From the sequence record L26366.1: DNA of 519 nt. One strand, written 5' to 3'. Source of the stretch: a phage. Made by a program: the position numbers and the translations under genes. The notes under the pieces are model-generated. The model was not told the DNA's origin. It worked only from the letters and a program-made list of their open reading frames with translations, and ran no database searches. Of this stretch, positions 1 to 519 are shown one piece after another (within the stretch, counting starts at the first letter, position 1; the number at the start of each line of letters is the position of its first letter).

Positions 1-80
1 GACAGTGAGTCACCACACTGAAAGGTGATGCGGTCTAACGAAACCTGACCTAAGACGCTCTTTAACAATCTGGTAAATAG

Positions 81-114
81 TTCTTGAATGCATGACTAGC
101 GGATAATTCAAGGA
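81..114 (+). ncRNA. RNA stem-loop in the early-transcript leader, candidate upper stem of an R0.3-like RNase III processing site
   Basis: Seen in sequence: 81-89 (TTCTTGAAT) pairs with 106-114 (ATTCAAGGA), giving 9 contiguous pairs (89-106 U-A, 88-107 A-U, 87-108 A-U, 86-109 G-C, 85-110 U-A, 84-111 U-A, 83-112 C-G, 82-113 U-G wobble, 81-114 U-A) around a 16-nt loop (90-105). Established knowledge: T7 has an RNase III site (R0.3) about 35 nt upstream of the gene 0.3 start, which maps to roughly window 134 by recalled coordinates. I could not trace the lower stem or the exact cleavage position by eye. Confidence 0.5.
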
Positions 115-155
115 TATCGCAAGGTGCCCTTTATGATATTCACTAATAACTGCAC

Positions 156-160
156 GAGGT
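156..160 (+). promoter_or_regulatory. Shine-Dalgarno sequence (GAGGT) for ocr
   Basis: Seen in sequence: GAGGT at 156-160, 8 nt upstream of the ATG at 169, complementary to the 3' end of 16S rRNA. This matches the well-studied T7 gene 0.3 translation initiation region. Confidence 0.8.
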
Positions 161-168
161 AACACAAG

Positions 169-519
169 ATGGCTATGTCTAACATGACTTACAACAACGT
201 TTTCGATCACGCTTACGAAATGCTGAAAGAAAATATCCGTTATGATGACATCCGTGACACTGATGACCTGCACGATGCTATTCACATGACTGCCGATAAT
301 GCAGTTCCGCACTACTACGCTGACATCTTTAGCGTAATGGCAAGTGAGGGCATTGACCTTGAGTTCGAAGACTCTGGTCTGATGCCTAACACCAAGGACG
401 TAATCCGCATCCTGCAAGCGCGTATCTATGAGCAATTAACGATTGACCTCTGGGAAGACGCAGAAGACTTGCTCAATGAATACTTGGAGGAAGTCGAGGA
501 GTACGAGGAGGATGAAGAG
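169..519 (+). CDS. ocr: Ocr (gene 0.3 protein; overcome classical restriction), DNA-mimic inhibitor of type I restriction-modification and BREX; all 117 sense codons present, stop codon just beyond the window (3'-partial by the stop only)
   Basis: Seen in sequence: ATG at 169 with SD 8 nt upstream; frame open to the window end; translation [117 protein letters not shown]. It is very acidic (16 Asp + 17 Glu of 117, versus 6 Lys/Arg) with an acidic C-terminal tail. Established knowledge: this is near-identical to the T7 Ocr sequence as I recall it (117 aa, same N-terminus [10 protein letters not shown] and C-terminus EEYEEDEE). Confidence 0.95.

Follow-up and report, generated by a model that had tools for sequence, protein, structure and literature searches.

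Pair-preserving changes in the early leader of an apparently mutagenised phage T7 fall in an inverted repeat that competes with the R0.3 RNase III hairpin

The R0.3 site in the early leader of phage T7 is a textbook RNase III site, a local hairpin with a two-stem architecture, an asymmetric internal loop and a AACUCAAGG...CCUUUAUGAUA motif; its cleavage coordinate we take to be T7 890 (Dunn and Studier, 1983). Leaders of the rrn type also have a BoxA element ahead of an RNase III stem, although that stem is a long-range helix flanking 16S rRNA. Attenuators and riboswitches use alternative pairing, in which an upstream arm can pair with the 5' half of a stabler hairpin downstream, and classical covariation, as evaluated by R-scape and RNAalifold, recognises RNA pairs from changes on both sides in natural alignments.

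Here we describe a DNA window of 519 nucleotides (L26366.1; "the window" refers to this whole stretch, numbered from its first letter). It aligns with phage T7 over its full length at 98.5% identity, corresponds to NC_001604 757-1275 and begins 7 nt downstream of the start site of promoter A3 (T7 750). It comprises the early leader that follows promoter A3, including BoxA and the R0.3 RNase III site, and gene 0.3, with the following features:

57-67, plus strand: BoxA-type element GCTCTTTAACA, an exact match to GYTCTTTAANA, upstream of the stem
81-89, plus strand: 5' arm of the stem, TTCTTGAAT (in T7 CTCTTGAGT), with C81T and G88A, both private to the window
106-114, plus strand: 3' arm of the stem, ATTCAAGGA (in T7 ACTCAAGGG), with C107T private to the window and G114A common to isolates K and K115
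97-145, plus strand: R0.3 RNase III hairpin, from annotation in relatives, the T7 minimum-free-energy fold and covariation
112-141, plus strand: alternative helix, 112-119/134-141 enclosing a 122-125/129-132 hairpin, the minimum-free-energy fold in the window
134-135, plus strand: expected RNase III cleavage (T7 890/891), on the 3' side of the 97-145 internal loop and inside annotated R0.3
169-519, plus strand: gene 0.3 (ocr, type I restriction inhibitor), ATG at 169, all 117 codons, with the stop just past the window end

Window 97-145 is the same locus as the T7 R0.3 site and keeps its two stems, internal loop and motif, with G114A in the upper stem and C107T in the internal loop. In contrast, the stem formed by 81-89 and 106-114 overlaps the 5' half of R0.3, excludes R0.3, and contains neither an internal loop nor the cleavage position. 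As in rRNA operons, the BoxA consensus match precedes the RNase III hairpin, here by ~30 nt, and a role for Nus factors is putative; the RNase III stem of the window, however, is a local hairpin. The likeness to attenuators and riboswitches lies in the complementarity of an upstream arm to the 5' half of a stabler downstream hairpin, and in the prediction that this arm pairs first and is then displaced, whereas no regulatory output, ligand or factor is known for the window hairpin, and the comparison is based on thermodynamic prediction and one mutational pattern. Likewise, each of two G-C pairs has been turned into A-U by two transitions, and 88/107 could have passed through G.U, as in classical covariation; however, these changes come from one laboratory lineage under a GC>AT mutagen and none of them is found in the natural alignment.

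The locus is already known, being the early leader of T7 with its R0.3 site and ocr, here from a laboratory mutant. No phage record is identical to the window, the highest identity being 98.5%, and the 34-mer at 81-114 had no exact match in viral, metagenome or genome contigs. An Rfam scan of the window returned two chance-level snoRNA matches only (E = 3), and no family covers the leader. We take a minus-strand ORF at 10-435 (141 aa) as the antisense of ocr.

The alignment to NC_001604 contains exactly eight differences, four in the leader (81 C>T, 88 G>A, 107 C>T and 114 G>A) and four in gene 0.3 (207 C>T, 234 C>T, 289 G>A and 388 G>A), and all eight are GC>AT transitions. Within Ocr, C207T (D13) and C234T (N22) are synonymous, while G289A and G388A give A41T and D74N; the exact protein carrying these two substitutions was absent in a protein search. 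Both substitutions are also present in isolate K, which has D13N and D115E in addition. Fewer acidic residues in the DNA-mimic Ocr are compatible with relaxed selection on a restriction-deficient host.

Four of the derived alleles (114A, 234T, 289A and 388A) are common to the window and the T7 isolates K and K115 (AY264775, AY264776), and none is shared with isolates P and P82. K and K115 are presumably mutagenised T7 from the Bull laboratory (Bull et al., 2003). Relative to T7, the whole genomes of K and P carry 415 and 305 substitutions, respectively, 94% of them GC>AT, and 5'-RG sites (G after a purine) are mutated 3-7 fold more than 5'-YG sites in both. This 5'-RG preference is the signature of nitrosoguanidine. 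The window has the same GC>AT spectrum, with a 5'-RG context in six of its eight differences (81, 88, 107, 114, 207 and 289), but differs from K in lacking 11T, 205A, 393T and 513G and in adding four private changes (81T, 88A, 107T and 207T). A passage of PMC2680503 attributes AY264774, the companion record of K and K115, to Bull et al. 2003, and GC>AT changes are described as dominant after nitrosoguanidine or hydroxylamine treatment of T7 in a passage of PMC6042481. Since all differences are GC>AT and four alleles are common to K and K115, the window is identified, as judged from its sequence, as laboratory T7 after mutagenesis of the alkylating-agent type, a sister of isolate K and not a natural T7 relative. 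Moreover, G114A is common to K whereas the other three leader changes are private, and G114A is therefore the older change; in K and K115 it stands uncompensated opposite C81, and thus the 81/114 swap arose in two separate steps.

Several lines of evidence place the R0.3 RNase III site at the hairpin 97-145. In Yersinia phage R (JX000007), R0.3 is annotated at exactly this interval, and T7M and phiSG-JL2 (NC_047867 and NC_010807, among the annotated records) have a stem-loop annotated at the equivalent place. The lower stem comprises 97-99/143-145 and 101-105/137-141, the internal loop 106-109/132-136 with a lone 107-135 pair, and the upper stem nine pairs (110-118/123-131) closed by a GCAA loop at 119-122. 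In wild-type T7 the hairpin has a predicted energy of -17.0 kcal/mol and a pair probability of ~0.95 in every sequence context tried. Across 21 distinct natural leaders, five of its pairs, in 30 cells, were changed on both sides, the covariation score was 0.289 compared to 0.139 for shuffles (0 of 500 shuffles as high), and the RNAalifold consensus is the 97-145 hairpin. A pattern search of viral contigs yielded 35 stretches, which were pooled with loci fetched earlier into 28 distinct hairpin regions; about 20 of the 28 fold into the R0.3 architecture, with different stem sequences and often with GCAA, GAAA or UUCG caps. R1.1 has the same dot-bracket architecture and also contains AACTCAAGG, the conserved motif of T7-family RNase III sites that lies within 106-114. 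In the independent mutagenised line P (and P82), G102A replaces a wobble pair in the R0.3 lower stem, G102.U140, by A-U, with a slight predicted stabilisation of R0.3 (-18.0 compared to -17.8 kcal/mol).

The stem between 81-89 and 106-114 had been proposed in the initial annotation to be a conserved, R0.3-like RNase III structure supported by covariation. Its arms are indeed complementary, forming nine stacked pairs (ten with G80.U115) that enclose a loop of 16 nt; the T7 arms quoted in that annotation agree with the alignment to NC_001604, and the four leader changes fall in exactly two pairs and keep both paired (C81-G114 to U-A and G88-C107 to A-U). Taken alone, the stem is unremarkable: T7 contains 189 helices of at least 9 bp with a span of at most 60 nt, ~1 per 210 nt, and the isolated hairpin has an energy of -6.7 kcal/mol in the window (z = -1.76) and -10.3 kcal/mol in T7 (z = -2.68). 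The stem was absent from the minimum-free-energy folds of window 55-150, which had been suggested as a check with absence counting against the proposal, of window 1-200 and of T7 811-906, and in full-length leader RNA its predicted probability was at most 0.04 in all 16 genotypes at 81/88/107/114. Furthermore, both swaps together destabilise the stem hairpin, from -12.3 to -8.1 kcal/mol.

Within R0.3, the same bases 106-114 provide the 5' side of the internal loop and the bottom of the upper stem. The stem and the R0.3 hairpin overlap at 97-114 and are therefore mutually exclusive; the stem competes with the R0.3 hairpin instead of forming R0.3. It is a single 9-10 bp helix without an internal loop, not the two stacked helices (~20 bp) of a T7-type RNase III site. 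Cleavage had been placed at about window 134, and this position does equal T7 890; it is 20 nt 3' of the stem and outside it. No additional lower stem beneath 81-114 of the kind that had been suggested was found, the flanks being taken by the BoxA region and the R0.3 hairpin. These results show that the stem is a separate inverted repeat, whose 3' arm coincides with the conserved R0.3 motif AACUCAAGG.

Natural relatives likewise gave no indication of conserved pairing in the stem. Among the 21 natural sequences, double changes occurred in 0 of its 9 pairs and all changes were one-sided, and its covariation score of 0.034 was at the shuffle level (305 of 500 shuffles reach it). The 81-114 pair is unpaired in 10 of the 21, with a mismatch in T3 and K11 types, one natural T7-type phage has an A87.C108 mismatch, and the 5' arm is missing from at least six natural R0.3-type sites. 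The inverted repeat itself is conserved in T7-, T3- and K11-type leaders, with a loop of 15-23 nt between the arms; the core CTCTTGAG of the 5' arm is nearly invariant in these phages and absent from other natural R0.3-type loci.

That the stem is the upper part of a conserved R0.3 substrate, and the swaps natural covariation, would fit the preserved pairing and a cleavage position nearby. However, the annotated, covarying and thermodynamically dominant hairpin 97-145 excludes the stem and holds the cleavage position in its own internal loop, natural sequences show no covariation of the stem, and the differences are those of laboratory mutagenesis, with G114A breaking an R0.3 pair. We therefore regard this explanation as highly improbable. 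The covariation argument itself stood in part: the changes are pair-preserving and unlikely by chance, but they do not reflect natural divergence, all being GC>AT in a window with four alleles common to K and K115. The apparent covariation relative to T7 is a comparison of wild type with a chemically mutagenised descendant, and since such a mutagen makes only G-C to A-U transitions, the logic of covariation has to be replaced by a mutagen null model.

For this null model, GC>AT site rates by trinucleotide context were taken from K and P and the load was scaled from 415 to 830 mutations per genome. The event scored was a helix with at least two doubly compensated G:C pairs, for which the expectations were:

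This helix: 1.4e-5 to 4.7e-5
Any helix of at least 6 bp in the window: 1e-4 to 4e-4
Genome-wide: 0.002 to 0.04

The complementary geometry of the four changes is thus unlikely by chance. The simplest rival explanation is nevertheless coincidence, that is, four independent mutagen hits at 5'-RG hot spots that happened to fall in two pairs of an existing inverted repeat, the leader being under relaxed selection. G:C partners in an inverted repeat have a matching strand context, so that a hot G is mirrored on the opposite arm and apparent compensation becomes more likely. The four sites are all in hot contexts (AGC, AGT, AGT and GGT; 0.023-0.033 per lineage compared to 0.003-0.012 for 5'-YG), and the left end of K has ~2x the genome-average mutation density. 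Single compensated pairs number 4-7 per genome (helices of at least 6 bp), and the pairing is without support from natural relatives. Clusters of four mutations in 34 nt are also ordinary, with 1.6 expected per genome and three in K. One cluster in K (3962/3968/3987/3993 in T7 coordinates) is symmetric (3962+3993 = 3968+3987) and non-complementary (C/C, G/G), and symmetric clusters can therefore arise by chance in these genomes. Clustering was rejected as a sufficient explanation, since 4-in-34-nt clusters are common and the complementary geometry is not. Moreover, even with context weighting and doubled density, the expectation is ~4e-4 for the window and at most 0.04 genome-wide, and no helix with two compensated pairs was found in the K and P genomes. 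Coincidence is accordingly not the most likely explanation for the stem 81-89/106-114, and we consider it possible but doubtful.

In K, G5852A and C5894T turn a G-C pair of the R1.1 RNase III lower stem (T7 5847-5899) into A-U, and G5875A and G5877A lie near the R1.1 hairpin loop. About 4 compensated pairs are expected per genome over ~3,400 helices, and it is notable that one falls in the real R1.1 RNase III stem. This pair-preserving double change suggests selection on RNA pairing in the K lineage.

The geometry could also have arisen at the DNA level, by quasi-palindrome template switching. A stalled nascent strand would fold back on the 9-10 bp repeat and copy the arm already mutated by G114A and C107T, converting C81 and G88 together and regaining the perfect palindrome without RNA selection. 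Alkylation lesions stall replication, and both E. coli and T4 provide documented examples of quasi-palindrome template switches. The two arms, separated by 16 nt, form a near-perfect inverted repeat, and a single conversion tract fits the distribution of the changes, both 5'-arm changes being private and one 3'-arm change older. However, the rates known for such events (~1e-8 to 1e-5 per replication) are no higher than those of two more hot-site hits (~0.03-0.05 each), no other instance was found in K or P, and sequence alone does not separate such an event from the other explanations. We judge both the switch and the joint conversion of C81 and G88 to be decidedly unlikely.

We favour, with about even confidence, pair-preserving fixation acting on a short-lived hairpin upstream of R0.3 that would arise as the leader is transcribed. 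The stem would be complete at base 115, before the polymerase reaches 123-131, the 3' side of the R0.3 upper stem, and it is predicted to dominate the folding of wild-type nascent transcripts whose 3' ends lie at 115-126 (P ~0.97). Once base 131 is transcribed, the R0.3 hairpin would displace it (-17.0 compared to -12.3 kcal/mol). In the proposed order of events, G114A comes first, because it is common to K, and would damage both the stem and the R0.3 hairpin. C81T would follow, restoring the outer pair of the transient hairpin (predicted occupancy 0.58 to 0.99), and C107T and then G88A would lead via a G.U intermediate to an A-U pair; in the reverse order, with G88A before C107T, an A.C mismatch would reduce occupancy to ~0.06. 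The predicted occupancies of the transient hairpin are:

Wild type: 0.97
114A alone: 0.58
81T and 114A: 0.99
81T, 107T and 114A: 0.90
All four (window genotype): 0.92
88A before 107T: ~0.06

These modelled occupancies fit a monotonic single-transition path and are compatible with compensation. Under heavy GC>AT mutagenesis, each step would be one accessible transition at a 5'-RG hot spot, and even weak selection for pairing would leave none but the pair-preserving combinations. We rejected the rescue of occupancy as discriminating evidence, since 18-25% of GC>AT triples drawn at random, with 114A already present, do equally well. Furthermore, selection on the transient hairpin is argued against by K and K115, which retain C81.A114 without compensation, by the swaps, which weaken the hairpin, and by natural relatives, which lack covariation. 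According to a passage of PMC2680503, IJ1133 is a restriction-deficient laboratory host without mcrC-mrr. Gene 0.3 is probably dispensable on IJ1133, whose use for the window lineage we infer; if it was the host, selection on the leader may have been weak.

G114A also affects the R0.3 hairpin itself. It breaks the covarying G114-C127 pair at a cost of ~7 kcal/mol, and with the A114.C127 mismatch the R0.3 hairpin of the window is predicted to be weakened from -17.0 to -9.8 kcal/mol and to fall to a probability of 0.33-0.70. Conversely, the alternative helix 112-141 gains: its probability is 0.00 in wild type and 0.15-0.57 in the window genotype, since G114A both disrupts G114-C127 and converts G114.U139 to A-U. 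A pairing of GGATATC with 135-141 had been noted before and is real, although the coordinates were one base off, GGATATC being 112-118 and not 111-117. In the minimum-free-energy fold of the window genotype, the expected cleavage dinucleotide, U134 and G135, is enclosed in a short perfect helix where T7 has an internal loop, and the mutant leader may thus be processed differently by RNase III or not at all.

The consensus BoxA sequence is GYTCTTTAANA (PMC5725501), and one match occurs in the window compared to 0 in 200 shuffles. The BoxA-type element is conserved across T7-, T3- and K11-type leaders, and the CUCUUGAG arm is nearly invariant in the same leaders. We propose, as an unlikely extension, that CUCUUGAG is a functional anti-R0.3 arm, which would pair with AACUCAAGG on the nascent early transcript and delay or gate the RNase III hairpin, possibly together with an adjacent BoxA/Nus complex. 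Upstream complementarity to the R0.3 5' half was also considered as a strong general natural feature and rejected, exceeding shuffles only slightly (z = -1 to -2.6) and missing in several loci. The viral contig IMGVR_UViG_2706795353_000001 is without the CUCUUGAG arm; ~20-40 nt upstream of its R0.3-type hairpin it has a different segment, CUUCGAGUUAUCC, whose complement GGAUAACUCAAG lies in the 5' half of that hairpin, with a predicted duplex energy of -17.6 kcal/mol (z = -2.2). CUUCGAGUUAUCC may be an independent version of the anti-R0.3 arm.

The textbook picture of R0.3 as an RNase III site is unchanged by these findings, and their only new lead is a possible unannotated anti-R0.3 hairpin adjoining BoxA. 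If the anti-R0.3 arm exists, the double compensation in the mutagenised lineage would be the first genetic evidence for it, and the hairpin, if real, would provide a simple, testable case of co-transcriptional gating of an RNase III site beside BoxA.
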